A DNA stretch of 64,000 nt from Takakia lepidozioides (GCA_030704615.1 CM060734.1:40610001-40674000), one strand, 5' to 3'; counted from the first letter of the stretch, positions 13,136-58,327 are shown. Made by a program: numbers and translations. The notes: a model not told the origin generated them from the sequence alone.

Positions 13136-13136
13136 T

Positions 13137-29445: not shown

Positions 29446-30619
29446 GGAAGTGGATGTCTTCACAGTGGGTCTAGAATTGGATGGTCAGAAAGACAAGACC
29501 TGGTACATGGATTCGGGTGCTAGCTGACATGTGTTTGGAGATCGTAGCTTTTTCACATGTATCTCTATCTCATGTACCGTCTGACCCAACATTAGAGCTG
29601 CAGGAGAGGAAACTCACCACATAGAGGGAAAGGGAATGTGGAAATCATACTACCAAGAGGTGAAATAAAAGAGATACCAAATATTTTGTATGTTCCCTCT
29701 TTGGGCAAGAATCTCATCTCAGTATGATCTCTCACAGATCAAGGCCATGTACTAATGTTCGATAGCTCCCAGTGCATCATACTCATGAAGCCCAATATTC
29801 TGGTTGGCAGAGGGGAATGCAACCCCTCGAACGGCCTATACCACATCACTTCGAACTCCCCTCTCAAGCCTGAATTAACGCTTTCAATGGATACTCTACA
29901 GGAGATCCTATGTGCGGAGGTCCCCAAGGATGACAGTCTCAATGCATTATGACACAAAAGACTGGCTCATCTCAACTAGCATAGTCTTTCAATCCTGTCT
30001 CGTAACAACATGGTATGAGGAATGCCCAGCCTCGAAGTTCATGAAGGAGTCTGCACGTCATACCTAGAGGGGAAGTAAACTAGAGAGCGAGCTCCCAGGG
30101 TTAGTGAAAGCCGAGCCTCCCAAGTTCTCGAACTTGTGCATGCAGACCTATGCGGCCTTTTCTAAGTGAACTCACTATTAGGTTCTAAGTACTTTCTCAC
30201 CTTAGTAGATACTTCAGCCGCAAAACCTGGGAGAGGTTCCTCAACCTCAAGTCAAATACGTTTGAGGCATTCAAGGCTTGGAAGAAGGTCGTCGAGACTC
30301 AAATGGACAAAAATGGTCAAGACATTGCGAAGTGACCATGGTGGTGAGGTCTTATCTGAGCAATTCTAGCAACTTTGCAAAGATCAAGGACTAACGATGC
30401 AACTTACTCAAGCTCGCATACCGCACCAAAATGGTATTGCAGAACGGAAGAATCGCAGCCTACTCGAAAAAGCTCGCAGCATGATGGCAGAGGCACAAGA
30501 GTCACCCTATCCGTGGGCGGAAGTTGTTAACTGTGCCACATTCCTCACGAATTTATCACCAACTCGCAAATGGCCCAATCAAACCAGATGAGAGCTTCAC
30601 TGGAATCAAGCCAAACAAG

Positions 30620-32097
30620 AGAAATCAAAACACTTCTACTACCATCCCCCCGCCACAAACAACCTGTACTCAAGTATTTGTTCAAATCTATTATTACTAC
30701 GTTGCGGAGACCTACACCCCAACCCCGGCCCTCTTAATATTCAAGATATTATGGACACCCTTTCTATCGACTCTCAAGACAAACACGCTCTCTATTTCCA
30801 ACCAAACTCCCTGACACTAGTACATAGCCACCGACACATCTCAGAACACTTCATGCATTTTTTTCCCCACAGTCAACCTACTGATCACACTCCTACACAA
30901 CACATCACAACATTCGGTCTCCCCTCCAGTCTCTACCCAGCACTCTCAAAGACTCTTTCCAAACTCAAATCCTTCTCCACTGCGCATATCCTCTTTTCCC
31001 TCATCGTCACCATCTCCCCTCTCCCGGACACTTGTAATAACTATATTCACTCGCACTCGATTATCCCAATATGCACCCTCCTCTCACAATTGCAACAATT
31101 ACCACCCCAACCGCATAACTACCAGCCGCCCCCCCACTACTAGTCTTAGATCCACTCCTCTCTCAACATATTAAACTCCACAACTGGAGCAGTCCATAAA
31201 ATTCTAGGGGATCACCTCGCAATAGTCACCCCAGCCGCCCAATATCTCCTCCTCACCTCCGAAAAATTCCCATTTCTCTCCAAAAACATCCTCTCTGCCA
31301 CACTCGGGGCAGTCACTCCGATACCTGGGTACGAACCCCCCACAACGGCACTACCCATGACACCCCCACCCGCCGCTACCACTACCGATACCCCCCTACC
31401 CCCATCCCACACCCGAGCACTCTCACAATAACTTCCTGGAATGTTGGATCATTAGCCACTAGCATACAGAGCCTCCTCCATCTCTTCACAGAATCGTCAC
31501 AGCCACACATTTTTCTCCTACAAGAAATCAAGTTACACACTACCCACACCAGTAACTCCTACATAAATAAACTATTACCAAACTACTACATCCTATACGA
31601 CAACCCCTTGATAGCCCAACAATGCACCTTACGAAGATCCGCACCCTACAAACCTACCCAGGGTGGTCTTGCACTAAGTATTCTTCGTACGCACCACTCC
31701 CCTAGTACCACCACCAAACTCACCATACCTCTCCCTCTCCGATCTCACCTTCAAATCATACAACTACACCCCCCATCCTTATGCCCGATCCTCCTCATAT
31801 ATCTGTACATGCCTTCCCATACGGATTTCCCTTATACCAGACATACTACACACTATAACCAGTACAATCACCCATACGGACTATCAGCAACACCATGTCA
31901 TCCTCGCAGGAGACTTCAACAGAGATATCGCTATGACCGGGCACTCATCCAATGGCGCTCACGTATTCCTATCCTCAACTGACCATGAATGGGCCAGATT
32001 CACCCAAAACCTACAACTAAAATATATCCCAGCTGACCACCAATATTCCAGGCATGGCGGCCTCAACTATTCATCCCTAAGTCTACTAGACGGCTTC
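30620..32097 (+). mobile_element. LINE fragment: 2A-like peptide, Pro-rich linker and APE endonuclease (decayed, truncated)
   Basis: LLLLRCGDLHPNPGP at 30688-30732; ITSWNVGSL...PHIFLLQEIK; GGLALSI; LYMPS; HVILAGDFN; SLLDGF. Confidence 0.85.
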
Positions 32098-32605
32098 TAA
32101 CCCTATTTTAAGTAATTCCAAACTTTTGGCTTAAATCCGGACCAAACTTAATATATATCATAATTAAAATTATTTCAGGTATTAATAATAATATCGTGGA
32201 ATATTGAGTCATTTAACTTGTGAAGTTGCACAATCCCATTCATGTAACATCGAATGGTAAGTCGAATGACATACTTTGCATCAGAAAATTATAAAGATAA
32301 GATCGATTGAATGAAGTTATTAATAAATTGATAGATGTATGACATAAACAGATGATTCAAGAAGATAATATACAAATGAAAAGTAAACATCCATATCATG
32401 CTTACAGTATAGTAGTACCATGAACCAATGTATTGCAAGTTTTCAATTGATGGATTAAAATGTTGAATGGAATAAGGTTGGATTTCAATGAAACATGTGA
32501 ATTATGTTTCAAAATATTTAGGGATCATTCCGATGTTCATATGACAACCAAATATTGTGGAAGAGTGTCATGTAGATTCAGCTATAAAGTCATTGAACCA
32601 AGCTG

Positions 32606-33250
32606 GAATTAGGTTTTAGGTTATAGAGTTTGGCTAGGGTACATTGAAACATAGTACTTGGTATGAATGGAAAAGAAAATATGGGAAAGTGTACAGATGA
32701 CTTGGCACCTATGAAAAATTGTTAATGAAATATCCCAACCACAAATTGTATCCAAATTTCTATGAGGAATGTGAATCAAACAGTGGAGTTTGGTTCAGGG
32801 TTTAGGGTTTAGGGTTTTAGAAAATTGTAAATGGACAAACAATTATGAAGTTTGAGTCTTTACCCATACGTAGAACAATTCATGAAATATTATCCCCACC
32901 ACTTCGACCGTACCCAAAATTGGAAGTAATAAATAAATAAGCATCAAACATTGAAATTAGGTTTTAGGGTATAGAGTTTGCGAGGGTACTAACCATAGTA
33001 CTCGGTATGAATAGAAAAGAAAATATTGGGAAGGGTACATATGACTTGTCACCTATGATTTAGGGTTTAGGGAATAAAATTTCCCAACCACTGATTGTAT
33101 CTAATCTATGAAGAATGCGCATCAAACAATGGAGTTACGTTTAAGGGCTTAGGGTTTAGGGTTTAGAGAACTATAAATGGACAAACAATTATGGAATGTG
33201 AGTAAAAAAATGACAGAAATATGGGAAAGAGTACAAGTGACTTGTCACCT
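32606..33250 (+). repeat. ~350-bp-period duplication containing short TTTAGGG telomeric tracts
   Basis: 32606-32850 resembles 32953-33195, with a partial third copy at 33215-33250; TTTAGGG tracts at about 32797-32820, 33059-33072 and 33140-33165. Confidence 0.8.
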
Positions 33251-34362
33251 AATTTGACTCCATAGTTTACTGCATTGGATGAGAAATTGAAGATGTGATG
33301 CGAAAGAATGCCCTGAAGAAGCACGCGCGATCGCGCGTGCTTTACTTGGTTGGTACTTGTATTCTATCGACCACAACAACACCATTGATACCCAGATGAT
33401 TAGATGACACATATGAGGATATGTCTGAGTGCATACTCCAAACAGTAAAGTGTTTCGGAAGACATTAGTTCACATTATACAATGTCAACTAAAATCTTCT
33501 GTTGCACTTTATCTGTCTTGCCATGCACACAGAGTATGATAATTCATATATGTGGTGGCATTGTCACTCTTATTTATGATGGGCGGAGGTGTTCAATGTG
33601 GACACAATAGTATACTATAGTATCCAACCATCTTGAAGGAAAACTTCAGTTGGTGGTCAGGAGGTACACCCACAGGATTTATTCTCCACTCGGATATCGC
33701 CTGGTTAAGAGTATACAAAGCTACGTGGTCTATATTGAAGTTTGGCGATTTTGTTGAGATGAACTCTTGCATACGCCAACCAGGCAATCCGCCGGTACGT
33801 TTGACTGACGACTGAACATGAAACACAACATTATGTTATCTGGATTAGTATCTCATGGCATTATTTCAAGATTGAGAGGAAAGGCCGAAGTTTGAAACAA
33901 ATCATAATGTCACGGATGTCAGGCCAATATACAAATGGGAATCCCACTGGGAAGAAATGGAATTGGAAGAAACTAACATACAATTAAGCTAGAATAGGGG
34001 ACATTCAATTGTGACTGCAATATGGAATAAACGGAATGGACTAAATCAATGTCACAATTAAACTGGAAATCTCAAAAGCTGCAGATCATTTAATTGGTTT
34101 CAAAAATCGTGAAGAATACTTTATTATTCAACAGTGAAGAAAGAAAACGGAGACATCGTTGGTGTTTAAATGTACAGTCATATATGCCTGCCTAAAACTG
34201 AGATGAAGGACTATATCATGGTGATTCAGGACACCCCCAGTGAATCTCATGAAAACTTATCGGGTACCCAGAAAGTGATCCTACTGATTATTGTGGGTAT
34301 TCGATGGAACCACATGGAGATTCTAAACTGGTTCAAGGACACTCCTGTGAGCCCATGAAGAA

Positions 34363-34995
34363 TCAATCTATTTCTGATGATTCCGAATTGTTAGAACTTA
34401 CAGTTGACGTAGGTGTGTATTGTGCCAAAAATGAGGCCAATGCAGCCGACCCGGGTCTGAGGTGTCTAAAGTATCCTATTGGTGAGTATTGTGGGGATCC
34501 CAGAGTATACCCTGGCGATGAGGGTGTATACTTTGGGTATGCCGGAGTGTACTCTGGGGTTGAGGGAGTGTACTCTGGTGATACGGGAGTATACTCCGGG
34601 GATCCGGGTGTATAATCTTGGGTATCTAGCGTATACGCAGGGTACATAGTGCAGAAATCATTTGATTCCGCCGATACTTCAGCTACAGGATCTCCGGAAG
34701 ACCCTCCACAGTATTGTTCTAGAAAATAACTTAAAGCGGCTGACCCGGGAGGAACGTCGCAAAAATATCCTATTGGTGAATAATTGTCCTGATCGTCTGA
34801 TTCAGGGGAGTAGGTGTCAGGCTCCTCTGTGGATGGAATTGTAGAAACTGGAGATGATATAACATGAACTCCTTTGGAAGGTCCTGTCATAATAACCGCA
34901 GCTCCGCATTCACCTTGTGAGGAGGGTGAAAGCGTTGTCTTGTGTCCGGTATGTTTCATCTCCTTCTCCTCCCTCATCGAACACGAATCCACCAC
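34363..34995 (-). CDS. Small protein with RNA polymerase II CTD-like heptad repeats (YTPxSPx)
   Basis: YTPGSPE-YTPVSPE-YTPSTPE-YTPAYPK-YTPSSPG-YTLGSPQ-YSPIGYF (34468-34614), flanked by two copies of a YSPIGYF...PGSAAL..FL.QY motif. Confidence 0.7.
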   Translation of the reverse strand: MVDSCSMREEKEMKHTGHKTTLSPSSQGECGAAVIMTGPSKGVHVISSPVSTIPSTEEPDTYSPESDDQDNYSPIGYFCDVPPGSAALSYFLEQYCGGSSGDPVAEVSAESNDFCTMYPAYTLDTQDYTPGSPEYTPVSPEYTPSTPEYTPAYPKYTPSSPGYTLGSPQYSPIGYFRHLRPGSAALASFLAQYTPTSTVSSNNSESSEID

Positions 34996-35778
34996 AATGG
35001 AAGAATCATCAAGAACTCGTGCTCAGATATAGAATGTACAGAAAGAGACACGCGAAGAACGCACGATCGCGCGTATTTGGTCCACAATTATAAAATCCGA
35101 TTATAAGCAACAACGATGTTGCTAAGCATGGCGAACGGAATCCATATACATGACTTTGTTCTTTCAGTCATATAAGAGTATCGTGACATCTATTATCCCA
35201 AGAAAATTCTTTTGAGCTGTAGCAACATCAAAATCACGCGCGATCGCGCGTTATTGAGTTGAGGCACAGATTAACTAATTTCATCCCACTGCGAGAAGTC
35301 TACCGGAAGGACTATTAAAGTACATTGAGAACATTGAGGATTATCCAGCTGGAAGTCGTTTTTATTTATATTTAGAATAAGACTGAAACGAAGAAGTCAA
35401 ATTCGCACTATTGCGAAAGGTTCAATAATTGCATAATCCTTAAAATTGCAAACTATGAGTTTACTGTCGTACTAATGAATGATTTCTTCGACCACTTATA
35501 CTTTGGTATTAGCTATTGTTCGTTAGTTCTCCTGTAGGTGACGACTTGCACTGAATGAAGCACTTACTATTGGATGTTATATATTTATCTACGAATTGTT
35601 CAATTATATCATTTTTATCAACCCCGTAAATTGGTGCGCATCAATCCAAAAGTCCAGGGCAGTTTGACATATTACTTGTCGTCAACATCGTTTAGGTTGT
35701 TCATCGATTCTGTAGAGCACTCTTTCAGATTGGACAGTGAAGATGTGATGTCCAAAAATGGTATAAAGGTGCGCGCGC

Positions 35779-36034
35779 GATCGCGTACAGCTGCAGAACT
35801 GCTGGCTCCAACAGAGTTCTGACTGTCCAAAGCAATATTGAGGCCATCAACGTCAACTACAGCAGTTTGTTGTCTACTGCTAATGCCTGACTCCCAGTAT
35901 GCAATCAACTCGTCCAACTGTTCTCCACTCAAATCAGTCTGAGTTCCTTGGGAAACATAAATCTTGTCCCCTTGTGTGCACAGGCTAAGAGACGAGACCT
36001 GCCCTTCAATTACGTCCTCATTGCCCCCAGCCAT
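35779..36034 (-). pseudogene. Inverted segment A: predicted N-terminus of the ParB-like/MTase-fold gene
   Basis: MAGGNED...SSSAAVRDRA joins segment B in frame at the palindrome centre once each segment is flipped. Confidence 0.55.
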
Positions 36035-36177
36035 ACAAGGAGGACATCCACAGATTTGTCTCTCATATAGACCAGAACAGGTTCTAGAAACAGAATTGTG
36101 GATCTTTCATGGCACAATCACACTCTAAAAATTCCATAGATTTGCGATCGCGCGAGGTAAACGTTGATGTACTATAC

Positions 36178-37044
36178 CTTTGCAGCCATAATTGTGTGCT
36201 GGCCTCCAATGACGAAGAATTTTGAATTGTTAATATCTTTCTGATGCCTTGGTTTCATCGCAGACACCTGGGTTGGCACCTGTTCGTTCCTCGGCGCCAG
36301 ATAGACGGGATGTTTCGTATCTAGAACCCGCAACTGGTACAGACGGGCTTTGACATCATCTTTGTGATTAATATTTAGCGGACGATACACCATGCTTCTT
36401 GGAACAAGTTCCATCCTTGAGATGTCAATTGAGATTATGTGGTTGAACCCAAAAAGAAACATGTCTTTGTAGTCATTCTGCAGACTTTATTTCAACGCCT
36501 CGCATTTTTTCTTGTCGAAAATCTCGCCAGGTTTTGGCTTCTTGTTGTCATTCATAAATACAATATCGATTTTATTTTTTTATTTTTTTTGTTGACTGGC
36601 TACTCCTCCTCATTCTTAGTCTGAGAGGATCCCGCCGTGGACTTCCATTTCCCTTTACCCTTTACCCCCTTCGCTGCCTCATCGTCTCGTTGTTTTTTGT
36701 TGATGTTTCCCTGCACATGGAGTACATCTTGGAAAATGCTCCAAGCTCGTACGAATCCCTGAGCAGTCAGGGCTGCACCACCTTCAGGGAAAGTGAATCC
36801 CATCTTTACAGCTGATTCCATCATTGCCTTGCGAACGCGACGAGATTCCGGAGAAAAGCCAAACGTCTTTTTTGCTCTACCATCCTCCAATATGAGGGAT
36901 TCTCCACGTCGGACTCCATCTCAACATCTTTAACGTAGCCATAATTAAGCTCTTTCACCTCTGCATTATGTATTCTTCTCTGCTTCTATGAGAATCATCT
37001 TTCGGATATTTCTTTGTTTTTCCTCATTATCCTTCTCGCGCGAT
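36178..37044 (-). pseudogene. Inverted segment B: charged region plus ParB/Srx-like domain
   Basis: YRPLNINHKDDVKARL...KFFVIGGQHTIMAAK followed by the splice donor GTATAG; GGQH resembles the ParB/DndB G(H/Q)xR loop. Confidence 0.65.
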
Positions 37045-37187
37045 TGCACGTGCTTCTACTAGATGATTATATCAGATGCATCGACGACTTGTTTCGTAGA
37101 GATGCATAGCATGATAAGCAAGCACGCGCGATCGCACGTGCTCCTTTATAGTTCAATTCCATGCCGATGTAACATTTTCCAAATCAG

Positions 37188-40050
37188 GAACTCGTGGAGG
37201 AGATTACTGACCGGGAGCAGAGGGACTACTACGCCGAATGGCCATCAATTATCCTCTGATCAGATAGGAATAATCAATTGCGGAAGGTTTCTAAGCTCCT
37301 GAACGACCCAAATAAAGCCCAAAAATTCGACACAACATTCCCGGAGAAAGTTGCTCACGCCAGGATGTATTATGAGTTGAGGGGGAAGCCCAAGAAATTC
37401 AACGATAACGTTTCCAAATCTGAAACCGTTCAGTGGAAGATAATTATTCGGACTTCCTTTATTGTTTAATGTTTTGTTGTTCATTCACTAGAACTGTGTG
37501 TCCCTGTTGTGTGTTGGCCTGACATGCTGTTCCTGTTGACCAGGAATTTTTGCAAGCTTCACAACTTATATTGGAGATGTTTAGCGTTAAGGAGGCCATA
37601 ACCTTGGTCCTTTTGTGTTGACGATGTTTGGGAGAAGTGGCATGAAGTTTTCAGAGAGTGGGAGAAGGAAAACCTTTTGGACATTAACGGAAAGAAGCAC
37701 AAGGGTGTACAATCGCAGCTAACAAAATTTGCAGTTTGCAAACTCCAAGGATTGAACCCCCTTCAAATGAAGAAGGTTGCGCAGAAGATTTTGGACTTGA
37801 AGATCTGCATTCGTGGTCCTTACAAAGGAAAAGACCCCAAGATTCTTTGCCTGTTCGATTACATCGATCGAATAAAGGACAGGCGGTTTATCATCGATGG
37901 TGTTATGGTGGTATTGGGATATGATGCCAGGAGCAAGCAGCATCCAGAGCCGTACACAAAAGCAGAATGGCTCGAAGTGAAGAAAAGGTACAAGTTCAAC
38001 AAGTCGGAATTTGAGACATTCCGATCGAAATTGGGGGCCAAATACATGAAAAGCAAAGTGAACATGAACATGAAGACCGAGAAAGTGAGTGACGCTTCCA
38101 TCAAATACGTGCTTTCATGTAAGAAAAAGGTTGAAGACATGGAGAAGGAAATGGGCAACCTCAAGGATACATTCAAGCCACATTACCAGTGCATTGGAGG
38201 GAAACGGAGGTTCACGGATGCCAAAACATAGTTGAAAATTGTGAGAAAGAGGGATTTCGATAACATCGCAATGGTGTTCGTCAACACAGTCTGTGACGAT
38301 GATTCAACTGTTTTCATGCAAAGAAATTACAAGAATATTTTTGATGCGTTCTTCGAACAGCAGCTGAGCCCCAATGCATTTGTTTTCTTCTCGACGCAGA
38401 GGTCCTCTTCCAATCTGGTTTCGTACGTAAGGTTTGGCGAGGGGCGGGACAAGTATATTCTGCTTCAGGGGTTGTATCTTCCTGGAGAGTTTGACAATCC
38501 TTACATGAGCCGGCCAAAGTCATTTTCAATGCCACTCATGTGCCTTGATTACGTATTTCCTGTTACAGCTGCCCAGATTGAGAACCACGAGGAGCACCTA
38601 CAGGGAGTGTTGATGTTCAGCACCATTAAACCAGTGATTAAGGCTCCGGACACTGAGCTCACGGAACACAAGAAAGATTGTGCCGCTTATGAACACGAAT
38701 TGCGGGCAGAGTCGAGCGACTACATTGCGTCCTTGTTCTGTGGCGAAGGGATGGCGGTTGTCAACGTTTTTGGAGGCGTAATGATAACATCAGCTCTCCA
38801 CGTAAGCATTTGATTTCCATATCCATTTGATTTCCATTTCCATTTCCATCTCCAAAACACATCTTTGGAACCTTGCACGATCACGCGTTCATCCTGTTTA
38901 CTCAATGGTTAGTATCTTTTGCAGGCTAGGAACGTCCGTGTCCTCGATATAAATCACAACCTGAAAAAGAAATTCTGCATGAATAAGGTTGCCGCTAACT
39001 ACACACTCCTCCACACGGAGAATGAGGACGGAACCGAGGTTGGTGATGACACATTGGGAGGGCAGGAGACCACAAGCACAATGGCGAAGGAAATGATGAC
39101 GACGATGACGATGAAGACGACGGACAAAGAGATCTAGAGATAGAGCAAAACCAGGAAGAAGGTGATTGAAACGAAACGTTGGAGAAAAATGAAGGACATG
39201 AGGAAAGTGATGAAGGCAAGGGCGACTACCAACACGATGATGCCATCAACAATTTTTTGGAAGAGGAGACAGAAAAAATTGAGCAAGGCAGAAATCCACC
39301 AGCTGAACAAGCAGGGAGGGTAGTACCAAAAGAAAGCCACCATCCACAGGCCTAGACAAATACCCGTGAATGAGACAATCCCGAGACAATTGTGCTGTCT
39401 TCCTCCACTGAAGAAGTGGGGGGAGACAATGTAAAGGATAACACTGATTCTAGAGACGTCTTCAATAAGGAGATTTCAGAAATAGACTTAGGGGTGGGAT
39501 TCAGTCCTGTGGAGGGGGATATGCCATTACAGATGTCACTGTATCAAGGTTTAAGCCAACGAGTTAGAGACATCGTTGATGGTCAGGCTTCTAGGGCATT
39601 GGTCAGCAATCAAAACTCTATTGAAGTGAGTATTGCAGATTATGAGTTGTCCTGACACTTGTAAAACCCAATTTATAACAAACTTGATACAACATCAGAA
39701 TCTTATACCAATGGAACTATTAACCTATTGCACAATGATAATCTCGTAAATGAATCGAAATTTATACGGAAGTCTAATCATCCGCATTTTTTGTAGATCC
39801 GTGAGTCCAATACGGAGGAAGTGACACATACCAGAACAAACGACATACAACAGCGTACAATGAAGAAACAATATGACTTGAGAGTGACGATATCGTCGCC
39901 TAAGGTGACAACTTCGGAAAACCGCGGGCGATCGCGCGAGGTTACTTATGGGAGGGGTCGACAAAAACATACCGGACGGTGAAAGACCCATCGTCGATGG
40001 AATTGGCGGCGAAACCTCATCCGGCTTGGAGCAAGTGCCGCCAAAGCTGG
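37188..40050 (+). pseudogene. Downstream exons of the ParB-like gene: helical region, degenerate beta-class methyltransferase fold, acidic tail
   Basis: Exons at about 37188-37463, 37544-38801, 38925-39625 and 39798-40050; ELRAE...LFCGEGMAVVNVFGG...ALH/ARNVRVLD resembles MTase motifs X-I-II; no DPPY; a few stops and frameshifts. Confidence 0.6.
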
Positions 40051-40195
40051 TACTTCATTCTCCGCCTTCTGCTTTCCTTTCTGCATTCCATTGCGAAAAA
40101 ATTCCAATGAATTAATTAATAATTATTTCCTAATGATCTATCCACCACACGGCTATTCCCAAGATGTCCAACCCGCGGATTTCTTTGCTCTTCGA

Positions 40196-40905
40196 ATGGG
40201 TCCAAATGGATGTCAGCCCGGATATTATGTCCTGGTTCTGGATGTCAGGTTCCTATGTGAGGTCTACCTCCAGAATGGGCCAAACCCTCCCGCAACTCAG
40301 CCTTGTATCTCCGCTGGAAGATTTAAGTTAGCAATGCGACATGAGGTGGGAGACTTCCTCAAATGGGTCGTCAAGAAGTTTTGGGTCATCTTATGGAACA
40401 CTGGCAAAGAAGAGACTGTCGTGGATTTCAAATCAGCCTTGTTCGAGAGAACGCCCACAAGGTCATGCATTACAGTTCCGACCAATGTGTGGAACATAGA
40501 CTTACTTTCAACACATATTGGCCTACGCTACCTAAGGCCCCAATCTACTTCAAACGACTTTACGACTTGTTCGTAGACCCCGACTCTAAAGCTTACAGGT
40601 CTAACACCCTGCTTATCGACGTCGTTGGGAACATGTACAAGTCTTTTCTCAATCCTCTGAGCCTGGTCATCTTCCTACCTAAATATGAAGCATTTGTAGA
40701 TCCATACAAGGATGAGTTTTTGATGGGTCATCTGAAGCCCCACCTGGAGAAGTTGAAGCATTCAAAAATGGACACTTGGGCCTTCAATGAGCAGAACCCT
40801 TTTGGAATACCTAAGGATATCTACTTTCAGGATGCTAGAGTGAAATTCATTAATCGCTGGGACTTTCCATGCCCAAGAACAAGGATGAATGAGATGCACA
40901 TCTAA
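40196..40905 (+). pseudogene. FCP1/NIF-like HAD phosphatase domain 1 (frameshifted, catalytic motif degenerate)
   Basis: VLVLDVRFLC...RHEVGDFLKW...FWVILWNT...PIYFKRL...SNTLLID...KSFLNP...NPFG. Confidence 0.75.
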
Positions 40906-41054
40906 AGTACCTAGAGGCCCTGGAAGTGGAACATGGGATATTAAAGTGAGTAGTTTTGAGAATGTATTGGGATTCTGACGTCATTGAGTTCATTATCTGT
41001 TCATGGGATTCTTCTTTTCTTGATTTACTTAATTGTCTTTATCACTCCTTCACA

Positions 41055-41679
41055 GATCCGACAGCCTAGATCTCCACCTGTGCGGGGACCTCGCTTGATA
41101 ATTTTTGACGTTAATGGAGTGTTATGCAAAATAACGAAGCGCCAGAGCCCAGGACCTGCTCCACATTTTTCGGAATCTGATTACAACATTCCTACTATTG
41201 TTGGGTATCAACAAATCTTTAGACGGAAGATGTACCGGGAAGTTTGGCAAGAGTTACATAAGCACTTCATTTTAGGTATCTGGAGCTGCATGATGCTTAA
41301 AAACTTAAATGCCGTTTTGGATTTGTTCCTACGTGGTCTTCCACGGCCAGCGTTCATCATGTCGCAGGAGGATTGTATCATTTGCCCAAGCAATCTGCAC
41401 CCAAATTACCGAACGGAACAAGATCAACCACCTGTGTTCTTGAAACCACTCTTTAAAGTATGGCAGAGTTCTGAAGGTTTTTACAATCAAGGTAACACTC
41501 TGCTGATTGATGATACGGCTTTGAAGTGTTTGTTGAACCCTCCCAAATCTTGTCTTCTTCTCAAGACTTTTGAGAACATCGACGTCGACGATTTCTTCCT
41601 TCTCAAACTTAGAGATTTCTTGCTTAGCTTCTTGAAATTTGAGAACGTCTCAAGCTTCTTGAAAGCAAGGAGAATATGA
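41055..41679 (+). CDS. FCP1/NIF-like HAD phosphatase domain 2
   Basis: RLIIFDVNGVLC...FILGIWSC...FIMSQEDC...PVFLKPLFKVW...GNTLLIDDTALKCLLNP; acceptor CAG just upstream. Confidence 0.85.
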
Positions 41680-43309
41680 TTTCCACCTTTCAAAGTTAAC
41701 GATCCACAGTTCAAGCCTCTTCTTGACTATATTGACAATTCACAATATTGTGATTTCCGAGTAAATGATAAGTAAATATTCGCGTCCTACTGTGGACACA
41801 GTTTACTATTTAAAATTGATTGTGAAGACCATGGAATTTCAGTCTTCTTCTGATATTCTTTTGCTTTGCATGGAAATTGTTATATTGCCGAACCATATGT
41901 AACGGTCAATGGATTCGTTGTTGCTTTATGTCTGTCGATTTCTTTTCGGAACCACGCGTGGTCACGCGTTCTTCCAACTCAACTTTGTTGACATATATTT
42001 CATTTGCATGTATGCCCATATCAATATGTTCTCCATGCCACAAATGCATCTCCAATTGGCGAAACAATATCGTCTGATATTGTTGACGATGTAGAAATGA
42101 TCAGGCCAGAAGCTTTCCAAGGACCTGACAACTTGTTGTCTACTCAGGCATCCATTGCTGTTATGGAGAGTGTTTCGAGGCTCAAAATGTCAAAAGGTGA
42201 ATCCACAGTTAGCAGGGTCGATGATTTAACTGGGGTTGGCTGCATAGTGGAGAGCGACTTTCAATATCTTGGGGAATCCTCCTTGGAGCCGTCCTTCTCC
42301 CAACACTTTCCACCAGACGCCGTCACAGGGCATCTATATGAGTCTACCGAACAATTGGTTGCAACTATCGCTCAATTGCCTCCTCATCATGTCGTAATTC
42401 CAAGCGGGTCACCGGATTACGAGGGCTGGACACCTCAGCTGCTGAGAAGTCAGGTGATTTATTTCTATTTCATCCATACATTTTATTGTTACATGTTTCT
42501 GTTCATCCTCTGATTTTCTCTCTTTACTCCAAGCCAGAAAAGTTGCAACGTATAACCTTCCTATGAAGCGACAACTTATGTGGGGTTGTATTCCAATGTA
42601 ATCCCTTTTTTTCCGTTTGAATTCGGTTCAGGATGTGCAGAAAGAAAGAAACCGAATTCCATTGCCAACCGTCAACGAGAAGGTTATTGAACTCACTCAT
42701 TCGCCAACTGAGGTCAGCACACCGACAAGACCGACAAATATTTCTGCACATCCCCAACCCCCCAGAATTCCGGATGGTCCTGTGTCAAGGAAACATCGCA
42801 GATCACAGCAGTCAGCGGCGGTCGTGTCCGATGATGAAAAAACAGCATCTGGCGTTCTGTTATCCCTTCAACATTCAACTGCCTCCAGTGGTAATCCGCC
42901 TCAGAATCGGAGGGTAAATCTAGCAAAGGTAATAAGTATCCCTTTCACTTGGTCCTCTGTCTTATTGGTTATGGCTTCCAAGTAATCATTACATATATTA
43001 TTTACATTGTCGACACAACTTTCACAAAGTAACCTCGCGCGATCGCGCGTGGTTGCAGGAAACTCAGAGACTCCCGATTGTGATTTTTTGTCTCAAGTCT
43101 CAATTGGATGTCGTAATGCTGAAAATATTACCTTAGCAAAATATTCCATTTGAAAATCAGGGTATAGAAACGAGGTAAACCACAAAACGTAAGTATGTCG
43201 TGGCATTTTTTGAGTTGCAAAATGTATTGGAAATACCTAATTTTTGGGTCAGATAACATAAACTAATGGGCTCTTTTGGATGGTTCAGAACGTTGTTACT
43301 CAAGAAATG

Positions 43310-43985
43310 TGTGGTGTCCGGAAACACAAACGCATGTTGCTGGTACTGAGTGTCAATGGACTTCTTTGCTATAGGCCACCTCCTACCGGAGGTGAGTTGT
43401 TTAAACAGAGGTTCCACTTGAGGAAAGTAACAATTCGGGTGCCCGCAAGACCATTTGTAGTTCCAAGACCTGGAGTGCTGGAGTTTCTTCGACTTGCATT
43501 GACTCATTTTCATGTAGCGATTTGGTCTTGCTCTGAGAGGGATACTGTATTCAAGATGTTGGAGTGTTTCGTTCCTTCGGAAATTATGAAACAATTTCGT
43601 TCATATGGTCTGCCGAGCATTGCACAGATATAGCTGGACATATTAAGCCTGGAATGAAATATCTTATTAAAAATATTAAGAGTATTCTCGTAAAATTTAA
43701 TGGGAAAGAATTTGCTAGGTAGGGGCAAATTCTACTGGTCGACGATGACCCTTCCAAGGCACTCCGAAACCCAGTGAATATTAGAGTCTTCCCCATCACA
43801 TTCAAGGAATCAAGCAATTTGGAGGATTTGGTTGACCTCACCAAATCTTTGTGGCCTTTTCTCTCTGGCTTGATTGGAGCCCAGTCTGTTGTTGATTACG
43901 TCGGCAAAAACTCCTGCAAATCTTCCTGCCCTCCGATAGGTCGAAATCACGTCTACTGGTCCTGGTTTGGAAGATTTATTGATGC
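43310..43985 (+). pseudogene. FCP1/NIF-like HAD phosphatase domain 3 (disrupted)
   Basis: LLVLSVNGLLC...PRPGVLEFLRLALTHFHVAIWSC...ILLVDDDPSKALRNP...LWPFLSGL...SVVDYV. Confidence 0.8.
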
Positions 43986-46249
43986 TTCTGTTGGCACCCC
44001 CCTCAAAAAGATCCTGATTATCTGGGTACGTAGTTTAACATTGCCATATTTTGTGTGTAGTCCATCAACTTTACTTCAACCTCCATTTGTACTTTTTCGT
44101 TTGTTGACTTCACGTGACTTTTGTGAGATCAATGATATTTCAATGATCTTTGTATTTTCTTTAATAATTCCCTTATGTGCTGCCTCCACACAGTTATATT
44201 CCAGTGTCAAGTTCACACTCAAATTCAACAGAAGAAGAAAAAGGAACGGCAGCGGAGCGGAGGGACAGCGAGGCTTTACGTTTGTCAAGGTCATCAAGTA
44301 CAGCTACCAGTGAGGTGTCTGGTCATATCTTACATCAATCTCCCACTGTATCAATCTCCTCGGGTACACAAAATTCCGCCATCAGTGGTAACCGACGGCG
44401 ATCTCGAACATATGCGTTGAGCGTGAGCCATTTGGGAAGCAACTCTGTGTTATTGATGAATTAAACTATGGCCGGCCTGTTCATTACACACATACGTTAT
44501 TTAACTCTCTCAATGTTATGCCAGATCCTTTCGGCTGTAATGTTAGTCATCAAAGTTTGAGAGAAATCACGCGCGATCTCCTTCATATATCCTCTTGTGG
44601 AGCTATCATGGATCAACAGTGCCATCAGATGTTATCAAAACAAGTTGACTTCATTGTCAGTTTAAGCAATAACAGATCAGGCTAGAGGCTGGAGGAGGTT
44701 GGAGGAGAAGAAATTTTCCGAAGTTTTCATATTACGATGGGGAACAAGTGACACGATTATAGTCTATGACTGAATTCGGGTTTCTATCTCGTAATTCAAG
44801 CTCCCACGATGGTCGTCTCATTTGTTCCTGAACGGATTGTGAAGCTCTGTTAAAATCTCTCTTCAAATGGATTGAAGTAATTTTGGCGGCTTCGAAATTC
44901 CTTCCCTGACGAATTGATGGCCACCTTCTGGTTGATTGAAATCTGGATGCACTCGGCTCGTTGTGGTTCTCAATGGTGGTAGAGAGAGATCTGTCGTGTG
45001 ATCACTCGTGGTTCAAAATGCGGACTTTAGCATCGTCCTGGTTCTCCAGCCGACTGCCAAAGTGTTATATTACCTCAAAAGTGCAACATGTGATTGGTCG
45101 GAGTGATGTTTTTTCTATGCTCATGCATTCAACAACGAAAATGCTATTATTTGAAGATGTGATGATTCTGCAGGCATAGTGAGTTACTTCAGGTCAGTTA
45201 CAGTGAGGGAACTCAAGGTATTCGGATAATCCGTCCCGGAATATTTCACACCATTATCCTGGATGATTCATTGATGTGTTTTAGAACACGCACTCAAATC
45301 ATCGAGGCTGATGGTGTCACTTGTTCCCTGGCGGATTGTTCAAGTATCTTATAATCCTAGTCTTTAAGTTGTTTGAAGTCATTCTCCCTGCTTGCATAAT
45401 CCGATCTCCAACAATTGACAGCATCCTCGTGGTGTTTTATTTGGTTCCTATATCCTTCGTTTGGAGATCCATTATTCTTTTGAGAAACACCAACGATTAA
45501 CATCGCGCAATCACGCGTGCTTTTCTAAGAGCTGACCTGTTCTGATGTCCATCATTGCACACCAAAATGGTGTTACGAGGAGGCAGAATGTCAGCAATTG
45601 AACGTCAATCTCCAGCGACATTCTCATCGTTTTCATTTGGACTGGACGCCAAAGGAGGAACACCGTCGCTAACAATCTATGCAAACAATCTGTGCAAACA
45701 ATCTCAACAATCATATGTACTTCAAGGTGCTTGATACCGCGTATGTTCATGTAGCTGATTTCTATAGGAGTCTTTTTGCTATTCCCATTCCAACAACATC
45801 AGGTCCAGTGAGACTGCCATATTCCGAAATCGGAATCAGGCACCACCTACATGAAACCATCAGCTAAGAATGAAATCTCTAGTTCATTCAATCACAGCCC
45901 GGAGAAATATCTCAAGCTGCTGGCCAACTACTGTGGGCTAGGGTGTTTATCTGGAGTTGCATACAATGAATCGAAGATCTAGTTGTCAGCTGATATGCAG
46001 CTGATGGTTTTATATTGGTCAATGATGGTGGGCCGTGGCTGATACGGGAGTCTGAATATGACAGTCTCTGGGGACCTGATACTGTTCACATGGGAATAGC
46101 AAAATGACTACTATACAATTCAGCTACAGGAACAACAATAACATCAAACACCTAGCAGTAAATAGGATTTTTTACATTGCTTGTGATAGCTCCAATCAGT
46201 TAGTTGGTGGTTAGTCAGTTGGAGATTATTTAGTTGGTGATCAGTTTAC

Positions 46250-46560
46250 GAGTGCTTTACAGTAAATCGTCAGAAGTACCACAGCCCATCATAGATGAAC
46301 CTCGACTAGTCACCCGACACTATTTTCTTGAAGATTTCACAGAAAACGTCACTCTCTCCATCAACGTACTCGCCACCGAGCCACTTTCCAGAAGCATACG
46401 AGCAGCATATTTACTCCCCAATTGGATACTTTCAACATCTTACTCTAGGGTCAGTTACTTGGACATTATGTTTTGAAGAGCATATGAATAATTCATCATC
46501 TTCACGGTTCACTAAAAGTCTGCAAGACCACCAATTCTTCAAGAAGTACAGCTGAACTTT
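46250..46560 (+). pseudogene. Degenerate paralog of the CTD-like gene
   Basis: TYSPPS...IYSPIGYFQHLTLGS matches TYSPES...YSPIGYF and YSPIGYFRHLRPGS in 34363-34995. Confidence 0.5.
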
Positions 46561-47120
46561 GGTCGCACAAGACATTGTTGGTTGGCGTAATATTGGAGGA
46601 TATTTTTTGTGAGGTCATCACCATATCAACGATTCTCGAGACAACATTTCAAGGACTTCTTCCATCAACCTTCGGAACAACGGAAGAATACAGATTTGAA
46701 AATGGTCCCTCCAACCTTGTCAAAATATCGTGATTTTGGGTAATGACTTTCCTCAAAATATTCTCATCATAAGTACGTCGGCCAACATCGTCTTGTGCTA
46801 ACGGAGTTCAGCCCTCCTTCTAGAAGTTGATACTCTCATTGACATGGTTTACGTTACTTGTATTGGTCCATGCCGCATGGGGCGAGACTTACTCAAATTG
46901 ACATGGTTCTGAAATAAAACCTGGTTGTTTATCATCAATGTTTCCCCATTGTCTTTCATTTCATTTCATGGTATTGTGTCATTGTGCCATGTTTTCCATA
47001 TTTGATTGATTTGTCTTGTACGTTACATCTTCGTAAGCTCAGTCGCGGTTACGAATATGACTGGTGCTCCAATCATCCATCAGGCCGCGGATCATGAGAC
47101 GAGTTATCACCCGACACCCG

Positions 47121-47338
47121 TTTTTTTAATTTATTTTTTAATGTAATGGAAACACCTGGGAGCGACAGCTTACAAATCAGGCCCCCTTAATAGTATAACC
47201 TCTTTCACAGTAACCCCGCCATGTGGCGTTGGAATGGGACACACCCAGGAACATACCACACTCGTCAGTAGCAAGATATGACCCCATCATCATCTTGGTG
47301 GCACTCAGTGCACTTCACCTACTGAGCTATTGACTGTT
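47121..47338 (-). mobile_element. tRNA-derived SINE
   Basis: On the minus strand: A box TAGCTCAGTAGG, degenerate B box GGGTCATATC, A-rich tail. Confidence 0.6.
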
Positions 47339-48526
47339 GGTATCTCATTCAACTCTTACTAAACGTCGAGTGAACAGTGGAACTTGCTTTATGAGCCAAA
47401 TAGAAACTATTTTTTCTCCTGAAGTTTATACATAATGTTTCTTTATTGCTCATATTATATATTAATAGATAAACAATTATTTATATCTTTATATTTACAT
47501 TTAAAATGATCCATTTAAATTCATTTAAATGATTTAAAAAATACATATTCAGATATTTCTCCTTATTTCTGGACCAAACTTTAGTCCAGATTTACTTAAA
47601 ATTGTGTTTTCTACCTCAAAACAAACAACACAATTCCATCCTACCTCCTTAGTCACGTGCATATCCATAGCATATGCAACTCCGACCACTACCCTGTATC
47701 AGGGGATGCTAAACTGTGAGCGGCTCACGTGAGCGGAAAGATTCGTGAGTGAAGATACCAATCCGTGAGCGGTAAGATTCTCATGGATGAGGATGAATGT
47801 CACTGCAAGGGCGTGTAACCGCGGATGGAAAAACCATGCGGGACCTGTATCCGCGGGAAAGTCTGCACACAACAAGACAGTAATTTGCAACAACGTAGAA
47901 GAGACAATGGCAGCAAGCGGATGGAAAGCGGATGAATGGAGGGTGGATGTTGGATGAATAATGGATGAAAGTTGATGGATGATAAATGAAGGAAACTAGA
48001 TGAAATTTTGGTTGATGGTATGAGTTTGATGAATGAATGTTGGATGAATTTTGGATGTTCACGGATGCAATCCAGCACATTGATGGATTAATGCATGCTC
48101 ATCTCATTGGATGAATGCTTGAAAAGAATGTGGATGTTGAGATTTTCTATTGTTGACGTTTGTAGGATGGTTGAACAAACATACATGAAGAAGGAAGTTT
48201 TGAATAGAAGAACAGGTCGAGAGTCACAGGCATTATTGAAACCATAGAAGTCGATATTGCTTCATTATCCATAGAAAGTCCGAAAATTTATGGGTCATTT
48301 CGATTGTCCAGATCCACTGGTAGAGGAGCTTGCATTGGAAACTGAAGCACGACTATCAATGAACACCATCGTCCCACTATGCACACGTCCATTCCTACCA
48401 CAAACCTGTCTAGGGGGAGATGTTTCGAGAGCAAATGTTCTTGTTGTAGCCTCAGCATAACATGACAATTCAAGCATGGGTGGCGGACTTGGAAAGAAGT
48501 CCGGGTTCGCAAAGAAAGGGAGGAAC

Positions 48527-49685
48527 CTAGGTGTAGTTGGGCTCCTGCAAAACATTGCAAACATTCATGAGAATCCCCAATTCCGACGCCACAACGGAGT
48601 CCCATGCAAAGAAGAAAAAGCATACGATCTCATGGAGGGGAGCAATTACCTCTTTGTACAACTCTCCATCCCCCTCAAAGGCAAACATATGCCTTCCAGC
48701 AGCCTTGTAGGCATGGAACGATGCCTCTGCCAGACGAATAAACCAAATGAGCCAAGATATGTGCACGAACCTGCACTTTCGAACTACAACAATGAAGGCA
48801 GATTATTGCTAGAGTGTGAAGGCCCGAACTTGTTCCAAGAGTGAGGTCAACAACACGGGACCCTTCAACACTGCAAGACTCAATGACTATCTGCATGAAT
48901 GCAAGACTCTTTTCCCGTGCACCTCTCCATGGCTCTCTCGAATTCCGCAGCACAGTAAGTGAGGCGTCCACGTAGTTGTAGATAAAATCATCATCCACGG
49001 GATCGCAGGACGAGTCAACATGCGTTCCCCCTTTCAAGACCTGGAACTCCTTAACAGATGACGGTGTGGATGGGTGACGTTCTCTTACGAGACAGTGTGC
49101 ATCAAAAGCTCGTGTCTACGAAATGAAAACACCGGACTCAATGAGGTGAGCGCCAAGGCAACATCAAGGTAGGTAGCAGATGACAACCTTGCACTACGAT
49201 TTCGTCAACGCAAGGATGCAAGAGAAGATTGACAGCGCAGAAGAAAAATAAAGCTCTCCAAACACGGGAAACATTTCTACAAGATTTAATGAAATGGAGG
49301 ATACGACATACCTTCTGGCCTGGGAAGTCCCCCTTTGTAAGTGGGAGACTATTAACTCCATTCCAGCTTTTAATCACCTTCATCCCACCAGACTTCAGGA
49401 AACTGGACAGTAGTCGTCGGCACTTTGCATTGGCAACTTGTAGGATGAGCAAACACCCATTGTCAGCCAAGAAGTTCCCACAGAACTTGAAGACCCAGGG
49501 CCAGTAGTGCTCGTCCCATTCATTCCAGGCTGGAGTGACACCTTTCGGTGGAAGATCTGGGACTGGAAGCCCGTCTGGAATGTCCACAACAACGAGCTCG
49601 CAGGCAAAGGGTTTTTTCTCTCCGTTTACCCACGATGGATCTTTCCCAGCCGTCACCCCCCAAAGCAATCCAATTTAAATGACAT
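48527..49685 (-). CDS. Spliced beta-class DNA amino-methyltransferase (N6A/N4C family) homolog; exons 49685-49312, 49115-48830, 48726-48527
   Basis: Motif IV-like ELVVVDIPDG near the N-terminus; FLADNGCLLI; WRGAREKS..FMQIVIESCSVEGSRVVDLTLGT (motifs X-I); ASFHAYKAAGRHMFAFEGD (motifs II-III); GT-AG introns; one frameshift in a G6 run near the start. Confidence 0.8.
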
Positions 49686-50869: not shown

Positions 50870-53800
50870 TCCTCATACTCTTCTCTGGCCACAGAGTCAC
50901 CGTGCCTTTCACGTGCGCTAGCGTGGTCTAGGGGGGGGGCATCGTCCACATTTGGGCAAGACAATGTAACACTTGGAAGCATGATCTCGTGGACTTTCAC
51001 CTTGTACCACCCGGATGGAATGTCCTTGCAGTGGAACTTGTCACCCCGGCTATTCCCACCACTTCCGCCTTGGCGGCGGCTGTCTTTGACCGCTTGTCAT
51101 GGGGGTTCAGGAGAAACACAGGATCTGATATCTGCAGACACCAACATCAGGGTCCACTCAGCAACAAACATAGCAATGACAGGGTTGAAAGTCAAGCGCA
51201 GCTGGGCATGGAAACGATCTTGGTTGCCACAATACTGAATCAGTAGCAAATTCATGGTGTACCAACCTACCTTGAAGCGAAGCTCGTCGCTGAGGGTGGC
51301 AACTGAGGAAAGCTGCCCACGTGTCTTCAACTGCAGCAGCAAAAAGAGGTTTAGTCAGACGGATAAGAATAACATGAACTCTGGTGGTTGCAATGGTATA
51401 AACACACCTCCACGGAGCAAGCTAATACTCTACACCCTGCTCAGACCGTGCACACTATAACCTCCTGGCAAAAATAACCCTACTAAAAACCAGCCAGGCA
51501 AAGCAAGGAGCCATGAATGCATGCCTGGGGAACCACGTCCTGCTGCGGATGATGGTGCCGGGACAGCCCACTCCTCTTGATCACCTGCAATGAATACACA
51601 TTGCAACGCTTCAGGAAGTGTATCCATAAAGGAAACCAACCAAGTAAGTTTGCGGAGAGGGGCTGGGAACAACCATACCTTGGAGCCTGCCTCCTCATGC
51701 CGGGGGGGGAATCCGGAATGCTGCCGCCGTAGCACTATGGTCCTTGGCGCAGGACCCACCTTCTTCACAGACAACCCCACTGCCACTCCCTGTACATGTG
51801 GTCCCTGCAAACATATAGTGCCAGCCTTGCGTGAGAGGGGCATCCGGGGGGAACAAAACAAACATATCTTTTGGTTTCGATGTCATGTTGCAAACAAGTA
51901 GGTTAGTTTCACCTGCATGGGCGCAGAAGTACTTCCCCCAACGACCCCATCCTCTCCCCACATTCAAGCTGCCATCGGGGTCAGCTTCCGCGTGCTTGTG
52001 AAGACACGCACATCCTTGGAGCAAAACAAATCTTGGCAGTAGGGCCAGACTGTTTCTAAAAGGTACTCTGAATCGGGCCCCTCACTAACATTGCTAGTGA
52101 CATCAAATGACAATGGATGGACCATGTTCAAAGGGGAGTTCCCCCTCCCTTGTGTGGTGAATCATCCACTAGGAGGGTGTTGGATTCGTTAAATCCAGAA
52201 AATTCCGACCACACCCTCGACAGTCTCTTCTGTAAGTTCATACGGCAGGCCCTTTTGTGGAGTGTGGCTCTGTCAAGGGGTCACACTCCTCTTGTGACCA
52301 CACAAAGAGGGAGAACCCTTGACCCCCTGCATCACCACTTTGAAGATGTCTGCAACATTCCCCTTGGAAGCACAGGACCATATCCCCACGTAGAAATGCC
52401 GGAAGAGAAGGTTTAAAAACTCGCAGACCTAGGGCCTTGGGAAAACATACTTGTTGGTGGTCAACACCCATGGCCAATGACGCCTCGGGTTGGGCTGAAA
52501 GTTAGGAATAGAGTGGCACAGGATCCCGTTCAGGTCTAGAACAATTAGTTTCGACTTTTCTATGAATGAGCTTTTGAAGGGGTGTCACGGGGTCTCACAC
52601 TCAGTGGGTTGGGAGACAACAGTCACCCCAGAGGGCAAAGTTTCGGTCCCCCTGCAGCCTGGACCAGGCAAACTACCACCTCTCCCCCTACAGCTTCCCC
52701 TTTTCCCTTGATAGAATGAGCAATGACCCCCCATCGTCCATGTCATCCCCACCAACTCGCTGGACCTCTCCCTCTTCAACGAGTGGACCCTGCCCCCCCA
52801 CTGTGAATATCATCAACAACAGGCTGGACCTCTATCACATCCCTACCACTACAATTACTTCTCCTTCTCAGGTACAATGGTCGCAGCAAGGGGGTCTTCC
52901 ATAATGCCACCCGTCACACCCCCTTTTTGCCTCATCATGAGTTCCACTATCTTCTTCAGTTGTGCTTCCATTCCCCTCTCCCGCTCCGCAGAGAGAGCCG
53001 CAAGCCTCTCCAGGGCCCCCGATGGCGGGCTGCCATTGAGTTCCCCGCTCCCTACGCATACAAACACCCACCCGTACTATTAAAACCAGAAGAAGAGCCG
53101 AATGTGCAGGATTTCAGGCATTCGGAGATGGCTGGGTTTGGCATAACACCCCTCGTGTACCATGCGTGGGGCCCCACATACCCACCAAATCTTAGTACAA
53201 CAACAGATTCATGAATGGAAACCGGACTTCAAAACATACCTGGCTCAAAACAGACTCTGATGGGGTGCCAGGCGCATAGTTCTTTTGCTCTCGCCCCGAG
53301 CCATCGACAGTGACGGGCTCCGCACTTTGGCGTCTTTTCTGTATTTGCCATCCACACACTGTCATTACAAAAATGCCAGAGCATATGGACAAAGCATTGC
53401 CCTGCATATCACATAACAACATAATTCTGGCACAAGCAATAAAACCCACTCGTGGGTGTCTCTTCCATCAGAACATGCCACAACGTAGGAGCAATGAGAA
53501 GGGGGTGAGGAGATTACCAAACGGGGCTGCTTGGCCTGCAACTCCTGCCCGGCCCCAACGCGAGGGGTTCGTGACACAAGCACGCGCTTGCTTCATCCCT
53601 TCAGCCTTTGCAAGTCCACGAGGGGACTCCAGTAGGCAACAAGCTTATCCCAATAGGCGGGTTCAGTGTTCATTGGCCTCACACCAGTCTTTGCCCATTT
53701 ATCTTTCAGTTTTGCTCTTTCTCCTTTCATTATCTTCCCACATTGCTTCACTATAAAATCACGATTGGCAGGGATAGGTCTGTACTCGTACATTCCATTT

Positions 53801-58019: not shown

Positions 58020-58160
58020 TCATGTGCATGTCAGCATGCTCCAAAACAGCCAATGTGGCTGTTCGGGGCGAGTTTGGCATTCGTTCCTTAAGCTCCCGAC
58101 GACATAAATTCAAGGTCAGATGGTGGGGCCAGTTGCAACAATGAACCGATATTAGCCTTG
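58020..58160 (+). mobile_element. Short LINE fragment, same family as 54790-55737
   Basis: CMSACSKTANVAVRGEFGIRSLSSRRHKFKVRWWGQLQ. Confidence 0.8.
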
Positions 58161-58327
58161 AGTAGTTCTGACTCTTTGTGGCCCTTCTATGGTTATTTGT
58201 TTGTTGTTCTACTCCTTGTGGCCCTTTAGGAATCCCACAGACGTGATACACATATCTCTTTCCTCACTTTCGGTCCTTCACTGACTACCAGAAATGTCAC
58301 ACCGTATGTCTGCATCTGAAACTTTTC

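Follow-up and report, generated by a model that had tools for sequence, protein, structure and literature searches.

The window analyzed here is a 64,000-nucleotide stretch of Takakia lepidozioides DNA (GCA_030704615.1 CM060734.1:40610001-40674000). It consists of land-plant repeat DNA, with chromodomain long terminal repeat (LTR) elements, pieces of long interspersed nuclear elements (LINEs), CACTA transposase domains, and PPR and P450 fragments. It contains a multicopy insertion, likely a non-autonomous DNA transposon, that carries an open reading frame (ORF) with heptads resembling those in the C-terminal domain (CTD) that belongs to RPB1, the largest RNA polymerase II (Pol II) subunit, together with three NIF domains of the haloacid dehalogenase (HAD) fold. 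The first-pass annotation of this DNA had read the two as a matched pair of CTD decoy and phospho-mark reader. The coordinates of all features are given in Table 1.

Table 1. Features of the insertion and its surroundings, in window coordinates.
Feature	Position	Strand	Basis or remark
Multicopy insertion, likely non-autonomous DNA transposon	32099..47608	.	15,510 bp; empty site, restored LINE frame, depth
Target duplication, left copy TTCT (TTCTA, 5 bp, equally fitting)	32095..32098	+	Empty-site joint, ends
Target duplication, right copy	47609..47612	+	Empty-site joint, ends
Imperfect terminal inverted repeat, left	32099..32118	+	17/20 bases are the reverse complement of 47589-47608
Imperfect terminal inverted repeat, right	47589..47608	-	Overlaps the end of a 7-bp-stem hairpin (~47568-47590)
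Subterminal tandem units of ~345 bp with plant telomere-type TTTAGGG runs	32604..33251	+	Just inside the left end
Twelve dispersed 14-bp CG-rich palindromes, CGCGCGATCGCGCG	33324..45517	.	At 33324, 35060, 35237, 35774, 36141, 37037, 37125, 38874, 39925, 41955, 43036, 45504
Heptad ORF of 219 aa between stops, perhaps a terminal exon	34363..35022	-	CTD-like array flanked by two ~26-aa YSPIGYF units
21-bp tandem array coding Y-T-P-x-S/T-P-x heptads	34492..34622	-	6.2 copies, 71% matches, score 115
Fragment (358 bp) of a repeat with very high copy number, inside one palindrome	35786..36143	.	Flanked by a 9-bp duplication
ParB-like exon (lead only), ends at a GT donor	36178..36486	-	Atlas DUF6551 0.92, DUF3723 0.91, ParB_N 0.89
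Large intron-containing gene with acidic tail, methyltransferase-like by eye only	37188..39655	+	No family match
NIF domain 1, LDVRF, degenerate	40214..40905	+	Motif ~40238; family profile in two frames, frameshift in window copy
NIF domain 2, FDVNG, DxNG subfamily	41071..41733	+	Motif ~41095; Pfam NIF 2.8e-8
NIF domain 3, LSVNG, nucleophile Asp lost	43316..43983	+	Motif ~43346; Pfam NIF 3.1e-5; frameshift and stop in window copy
Inverted pair of similar segments	45695..46183	.	74% over 149 nt; translations alike by eye
Paralogue of the YSPIGYF unit without heptad array	46310..46555	+	34% over 73 aa (pairwise E 4e-10)
Fourth NIF domain, DLNG, beyond the element	52146..52569	-	Profile of 157 related domains; comparison point only

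The limits of the insertion were determined from public contigs mapped on positions 29000-48900. The empty-site joint 32094>47609 was found in runs X1 and X5 of two studies, in one contig each, and the LINE endonuclease frame is open again once the two flanks of the insertion are joined. The element ends read AAC...GTT, and the target duplication, which is known from this one insertion site, is 4-5 bp long. The summed depth, which is not a copy number, is at least 1,552 in every bin inside the element compared with 45-93 for single long contigs, and ordinary sites in the element are covered by up to 20 contigs with differing letters. The depth and the variant contigs show that the genome holds many related copies of the element. 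Because of the empty site, the target duplication, the inverted ends and the depth, the heptad ORF and NIF domains 1-3 are regarded as the cargo of one mobile element. In this respect the first-pass annotation, which had put both parts on one element and had named ordinary syntenic host genes as the contrary case for the HAD domains, is borne out.

CACTA elements have CACTA/G ends and a 3-bp target duplication, and Mutator-like elements make a target duplication of 9-11 bp. The element has the inverted repeats, target duplication and empty site of a terminal-inverted-repeat DNA transposon, whereas a DDE transposase was found neither among its 133 ORFs (at least 48 aa; Pfam) nor in five read-through frames. 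Its ends show neither the termini nor the duplication length of CACTA/EnSpm elements; no MuDR transposase was present among the 133 ORFs, and the duplication is shorter than in Mutator/VANDAL elements. Since the ends obey neither the CACTA nor the Mutator rules, the element cannot be placed in a superfamily from its end sequences or predicted proteins. A Rep protein of the HUH type, as in replitrons and Helitrons, had no Pfam match in the same ORFs, and none of seven H-x-H matches was Rep-like by eye. Capsid, polymerase, ATPase and integrase domains were also missing from the 133 ORFs, and Rfam and ARAGORN gave no hits. The hairpin near the right end folds with a weak z score of -1.66. Replitrons, which according to the accessible sections of PMC10288648 are abundant in non-seed plants, likewise have short direct repeats at their ends and a hairpin near the right end; in the present element, however, the direct repeat behaves as a target duplication, the ends are inverted, and no HUH-Y1 protein was recognized.

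The heptad array consists of six in-register heptads, each agreeing with YSPTSPS at 3-4 of 7 positions, followed by a YSP-led unit. The pattern Y[ST]Px[ST]P has four matches in the six frames of the 64-kb window, all of them inside the heptad ORF. As the first-pass annotation had stated, the ORF has no polymerase domain: neither such a domain nor PF05001 was matched by Pfam, and no polymerase domain occurs among the 133 ORFs of the element. The array therefore neither scores as a tandem YSPTSPS repeat with PF05001 nor is joined to Pol II's largest subunit. It shares with the RPB1 CTD the seven-residue period, Tyr1, Pro3, Ser5, Pro6 and a hydroxyl residue at position 2, and it differs in having 6-7 repeats, Thr2, a variable position 4 and mostly Glu at position 7. 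RPB1 carries 26-52 heptads according to the available part of PMC8774115. The sole homologue among 284 candidates is a partial RPB1 (E 0.026; 35% identical across 39% of the query), and this match likely runs through the repeats. With a possible acceptor just upstream, by eye, the ORF could belong to a longer gene as its last exon.

The other copies of the element carry cleaner heptads than the window copy, so the loss of heptads elsewhere, which had been named as a result that would contradict the first-pass annotation, did not occur. In all mapped contigs the sixth heptad has Pro as its third residue and the fourth heptad has Ser as its fifth, and the unit upstream of the heptads has an added Pro in 89% of the depth; the family array is therefore nearer to the CTD pattern than the window copy is. 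The stop of the heptad ORF is read through in most of the depth (64%) of the mapped contigs, and 12 of the 15 changes private to the window copy are non-synonymous. In the NIF region, one extra base in other copies at 40448 (1,104 of 1,160 depth, 4 contigs) joins the profile-matched frames of NIF domain 1 and one at 43599 (1,169 of 1,535 depth, 3 contigs) joins those of NIF domain 3. The window copy is decayed, and the element family is less so.

In a codon test on the six heptads with the family alleles, the third positions vary in 5 of 5 core columns and the first or second positions in 1 of 10 (p 0.002), where the five core columns were picked after they had been seen to be conserved. With the window copy's own letters, first or second positions vary in 3 of 10 (p 0.026). 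The test suggests selection on Tyr1-Thr2-Pro3-x-Ser5-Pro6, and there is moderate evidence that the array originated in the element and that its protein sequence was maintained afterwards. Runs X6 and X7, guessed to be RNA, do not cover the heptad ORF or most of the NIF region and are uninformative on expression.

CTD-like arrays outside RPB1 are rare, and ZNF768 provides a precedent. The accessible text of PMC6344866 describes in ZNF768 a CTD-like array that stands outside the polymerase between two conserved boxes and is linked to repeat DNA. The heptad ORF resembles it in having a CTD-like array apart from any polymerase, set between two units and linked to repeat DNA. In contrast, ZNF768 is a host gene of mammals that has zinc fingers and whose 10-20 repeats carry Glu at position 2 (PMC6344866, same sections), while the heptad ORF is borne on an element and has no DNA-binding domain attached for certain.

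The first-pass annotation had identified the NIF domains as FCP1-like and had taken their altered motifs as a sign of phospho-peptide binding. The proposed PF03031 and PF05001 searches gave NIF matches for domains 2 and 3, no Pfam match for domain 1 and no PF05001. Domain 1 was matched by the family profile in a six-frame search (iE 8.6e-8 and 1.5e-13 in two frames). The predicted model of domain 2 (pLDDT 90.9) has the fold of SCP, CTDNEP1, Tim50 and UBLCP1. The NIF domain or HAD fold is seen in Pfam for domains 2 and 3, in the profile for domain 1, and in the model and Foldseek for domain 2. The catalytic motif DxDx(T/V) of FCP1/SCP phosphatases, as defined in the available portions of PMC4163886 and PMC7281111, is absent from all three domains, which read LDVRF, FDVNG and LSVNG.

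A search of 1.84 billion representatives gave 713 matches. Among 157 aligned domains from the best 150 of these 713, DxNG is present in 129 and DxDE in 1. Since DxNG is the usual motif of the subfamily, only domains 1 and 3 are truly degenerate; the three altered motifs that had been noted are present, and reading all of them as a departure does not stand. Judged from the alignment, the altered motif is not a decay tuned to the heptads, because DxNG is normal in a widespread host subfamily. The subfamily motifs (DxNG as motif I, W-S, F-L-K and D-D) are found fully in domain 2 and in part in domains 1 and 3. Domain 2 retains the nucleophile Asp, the Lys and the Asp-Asp pair of the family, and the step from altered motif to phospho-peptide binder therefore does not follow for it. 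It may keep a slow phosphatase activity on some substrate. Domain 1 lacks the Asn-Gly and one Asp, and domains 1 and 3 are predicted to be inactive.

The profile of 65 DxNG members matches UBLCP1 at 1.5e-16, SCP1 at 2e-11, CTDNEP1 at 9e-10, Tim50 at 1e-4 and Fcp1 at 0.65. By profile comparison, the NIF domains are not FCP1, and the subfamily is far nearer to UBLCP1 and SCP1. The domains thus share with the FCP1/SCP CTD phosphatases the NIF domain and fold, and they differ in having DxNG or worse and in the replacement of Tyr158 and Arg178 of the SCP1 CTD pocket. In the part of PMC7281111 available, SCP1 holds the heptad prolines by Phe106, Val118, Leu155, Tyr158 and Arg178. At the corresponding positions in NIF domains 1, 2 and 3, found by offsets from the profile alignment, Tyr158 is replaced by T, N and T, Arg178 by S, Q and A, and Leu155 by K, M and E; the equivalents of Phe106 and Val118 fall in a loop without reliable alignment.

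The DxNG members with names come from Sphagnum, Ceratodon, Asteraceae, oak, clover and red algae, where they are host genes, and four scanned metagenome DxNG loci sit among cellular housekeeping genes as ordinary algal-type host loci. Compared with Ceratodon KC19_3G035500 and Sphagnum BDL97_02G102600, the element's domains share motif I, W-S, F-L-K and N-T-L-L-I-D-D, and tandem domains occur in the host proteins too. They differ in being about 30% identical, on long branches and borne on a mobile element, with two of the three degenerate. In a tree of 162 rows made by a quick method, NIF2 groups with 14 long-branch proteins (SH-aLRT 91), and NIF1 and NIF3 lie elsewhere on very long branches; because of these very long branches, one capture and several captures are not told apart. 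The identity of NIF2 to the best 150 of its relatives is only 26-38%, and most copies have open frames. The NIF domains are likely, from these comparisons, members of the old DxNG family that were acquired separately. Three short contigs (L001, L002 and L003) carry intronless NIF domains of the long-branch clade of NIF2, one of them with stops; they are consistent with mobile cargo in another plant, and the contigs are too short to tell.

The fourth NIF domain of the window lies outside the element, and the six-frame Y[ST]Px[ST]P search of the window found no heptads near it. It is probably the cargo of a CACTA-type neighbor with transposase domains at 60422-63351. The 15.5-kb element shows that DxNG NIF domains travel as cargo of mobile DNA, and within the 64 kb of the window this probably holds for two separate elements.

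Twelve copies of the palindrome CGCGCGATCGCGCG lie inside the element and none in the other 48.5 kb of the window (at most 3 mismatches), compared with a mean of 0.075 and a maximum of 2 in 200 shuffles; at 2 mismatches or fewer, there are 9 copies versus 0.00 expected. One copy lies inside a 123-nt GT-AG intron, and most others are intronic or intergenic by eye. In VANDAL21, as the accessible sections of PMC5735166 describe, VANC21 binds a short motif enriched in the non-coding parts, and CGCGCGATCGCGCG is likewise a short motif enriched in its element. Like the VANDAL/VANC anti-silencing Mutator-like elements (PMC5735166, same sections), the element is a plant DNA element of large size that bears accessory genes and is enriched internally for a short motif. 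It differs in that its motif is a dispersed 14-bp CG-rich palindrome, for which binding is suggested by analogy, in its 4-5-bp duplication, and in that no MuDR or VANC domain was found. The CpG observed/expected ratio is 0.76 inside the element versus 0.62 and 0.54 in the flanks, which is only suggestive with respect to lowered methylation.

These results can be accounted for by a cargo-rich plant transposon in which the heptad protein serves as a docking surface that aids transcription and the NIF domains are separate cargo not matched to it. We give this tentative reading a probability of about 0.4. A DNA-binding protein encoded by the element, for which the ParB-like product is a candidate, would dock on the palindromes as VANC does on the VANDAL motifs. 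Host CDKs would phosphorylate Ser5 and Thr2 of the heptads, and the phosphorylated heptads would draw Pol II cofactors to the element, keeping it transcribed. A transposase would act on the element in trans, and the NIF domains would be separately acquired cargo and not readers of the element's heptads.

Several results weigh against this reading. Since no transposase domain was found in the 133 ORFs, the term transposon rests on the ends and the empty site. The ParB-like exon has no Pfam match and is a lead only, its Atlas neighbors resting on 11% of members. No homologue of the unique part of the heptad ORF was found in other species among the 284 candidates. The heptads number six or seven, and the paralogue at 46310 has none. 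The codon test over all seven columns is non-significant (p 0.06 with the family alleles, 0.17 with the window copy), and the choice of core columns was made post hoc. Among copies, the variants of the heptad ORF comprise 4 synonymous, 7 non-synonymous and 1 stop of 12, with 24-29% synonymous expected, in a tally from 40 of 80 variant rows; such minority variants fit neutral drift after insertion. Several of these points favor the alternative that the heptads are a generic Ser/Thr-Pro low-complexity spacer or a kinase-controlled degron with no link to Pol II, and that the NIF domains and other genes are unrelated cargo. An array that arose between two copies of a YSP-led unit, is missing from the paralogue, agrees with YSPTSPS at only 3-4 of 7 positions and escapes PF05001 would be expected of such a spacer, as would a codon test that fails over all columns and variants that behave neutrally. 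However, an exact seven-residue period is kept in which Tyr1, Pro3, Ser5 and Pro6 persist while positions 4 and 7 vary, and ZNF768 likewise best keeps Ser5 and Pro6, then Tyr1 and Pro3 (accessible text of PMC6344866). The spacer or degron is a serious possibility, at less than even odds.

The matched module of the first-pass annotation, in which a CTD decoy is paired with NIF domains acting as readers or erasers of the phospho-marks on it or on the host Pol II, draws on the presence of both parts in one element, intact in most mapped copies, and on three diverged domains, two without catalytic residues, that would suit binding roles. Its structural argument is that SCP2 and SCP1 are the top Foldseek matches of the domain 2 model (E 1.6e-9, TM 0.65-0.70), so a CTD link remains conceivable, which counts against regarding the NIF domains as unmatched cargo. 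However, the fit is about equally good for CTDNEP1, Tim50 and UBLCP1 (TM 0.62-0.70), and Fcp1 fits worse. The altered motif is the norm of an old host family, the SCP1 pocket residues are replaced in all three domains when compared with the available part of the SCP1 description, and the fourth NIF domain has no heptads near it. The predicted co-occurrence did not appear: heptad arrays were absent from all 150 proteins examined (the best 150 of the 713 matches), and neither heptads nor palindromes were present in any of 16 loci (15 metagenome and 1 viral). This test is weak because the three plant-like loci are only 1.2-1.7 kb long. The matched module is thus unlikely. An undescribed transposon family with a complete kit, in which the ParB-like protein docks on the palindromes, a selected mini-CTD recruits Pol II cofactors and the DxNG NIF domains read or reset the phospho-marks, would similarly be improbable.

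A Pack-type capture, with passive copying of dead fragments of host genes and an RPB1 piece among them, would explain the missing transposase, the RPB1 tail as the best match of the heptad ORF and the decay of the window copy with its largely non-synonymous private changes. It is doubtful, since the frames are open in most copies in spite of the long branch and low identity of NIF2, a paralogue of the sequence flanking the heptads exists in the element, and one intron is spliced in the run guessed to be RNA. An endogenous virus-like element would agree with the multigene layout and the short inverted ends. It is very improbable in view of the GT-AG intron, the missing virus-type domains in the 133 ORFs, the single weak NIF locus in viral contigs (E 5e-5) and the cellular housekeeping genes around the metagenome DxNG loci. 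A giant-virus origin was also considered and found no support.

Accessory genes and internal motifs are already known from other large DNA transposons. No report of a transposon with CTD-like heptads or captured CTD phosphatases was found in the literature searched, which took in few subscription papers and no supplementary transposon libraries, and the available part of PMC4738411 does not describe such a gene type. If the preferred reading is true, a plant transposon with a CTD-like array would add a new anti-silencing route to the demethylation of the VANC type. A transposon-borne CTD decoy-reader system, if true, would be the first, and the DxNG family would gain a substrate. The palindrome and the heptad peptide make the docking and CTD-mimicry ideas directly testable.

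Among the remaining features of the element, the number of ~345-bp TTTAGGG units near the left end differs between contigs. At 33620-34217 (+) lies a frameshifted pair of small ORFs, BAH-like by eye and without a Pfam match; an extra base is present at 33848 in other copies, and run X6 has a contig spanning 33725-34217. The 358-bp repeat piece reaches a summed depth of 176,219, about 70-fold the depth of the element, and both its borders show loose ends; elsewhere the repeat continues beyond them. As this high-copy repeat is inserted in a palindrome, the palindromes may also be fragile sites. In the region 36141-37138, the ParB-like exon (-) and its apparent next exon, with an AG acceptor at 37188 (+), face opposite ways. 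These opposed strands suggest a possible inversion bounded by palindromes, supported by no listed joint.

In the large gene, one contig of run X6, a guessed RNA run, skips the intron 38802-38924 (GT-AG, 123 nt). The ORF at 37602-38228 had no homologue among 217 candidates or 163 metagenome stretches. A methyltransferase reading of 38232-38801 is by eye only and draws no support from Pfam, NCBIfam or PDB; the Atlas result, of low recognition, pointed to acetyltransferases, the single-sequence model reached a pLDDT of only 36.9, and the segment did not align with the similar-looking region 48500-49800, which itself has no database match. The inverted pair at 45695-46183 probably represents two convergent small paralogous ORFs. 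The short segment at 47130-47340, near the right end, is high-copy and has numerous loose ends; its depth is high in both guessed RNA runs, and it is perhaps a separate small element.

Outside the element, the regions 48500-54000 (-) and 59533-63351 (+) contain Transposase_21, DUF4218, DUF4216, the DLNG NIF domain and a stretch that is DNA-methyltransferase-like by eye, without a database match; CACTA transposase domains lie at 60422-63351. The two regions form a probable CACTA-type element with cargo of the same kind as that of the 15.5-kb element. A PPR gene fragment at 57960-58980 is interrupted by LINE-like pieces. A chromodomain Ty3/Gypsy element with LTRs 96% identical occupies 5386-11391, and an inverted partial copy (94%) lies next to it at 13134-16435.

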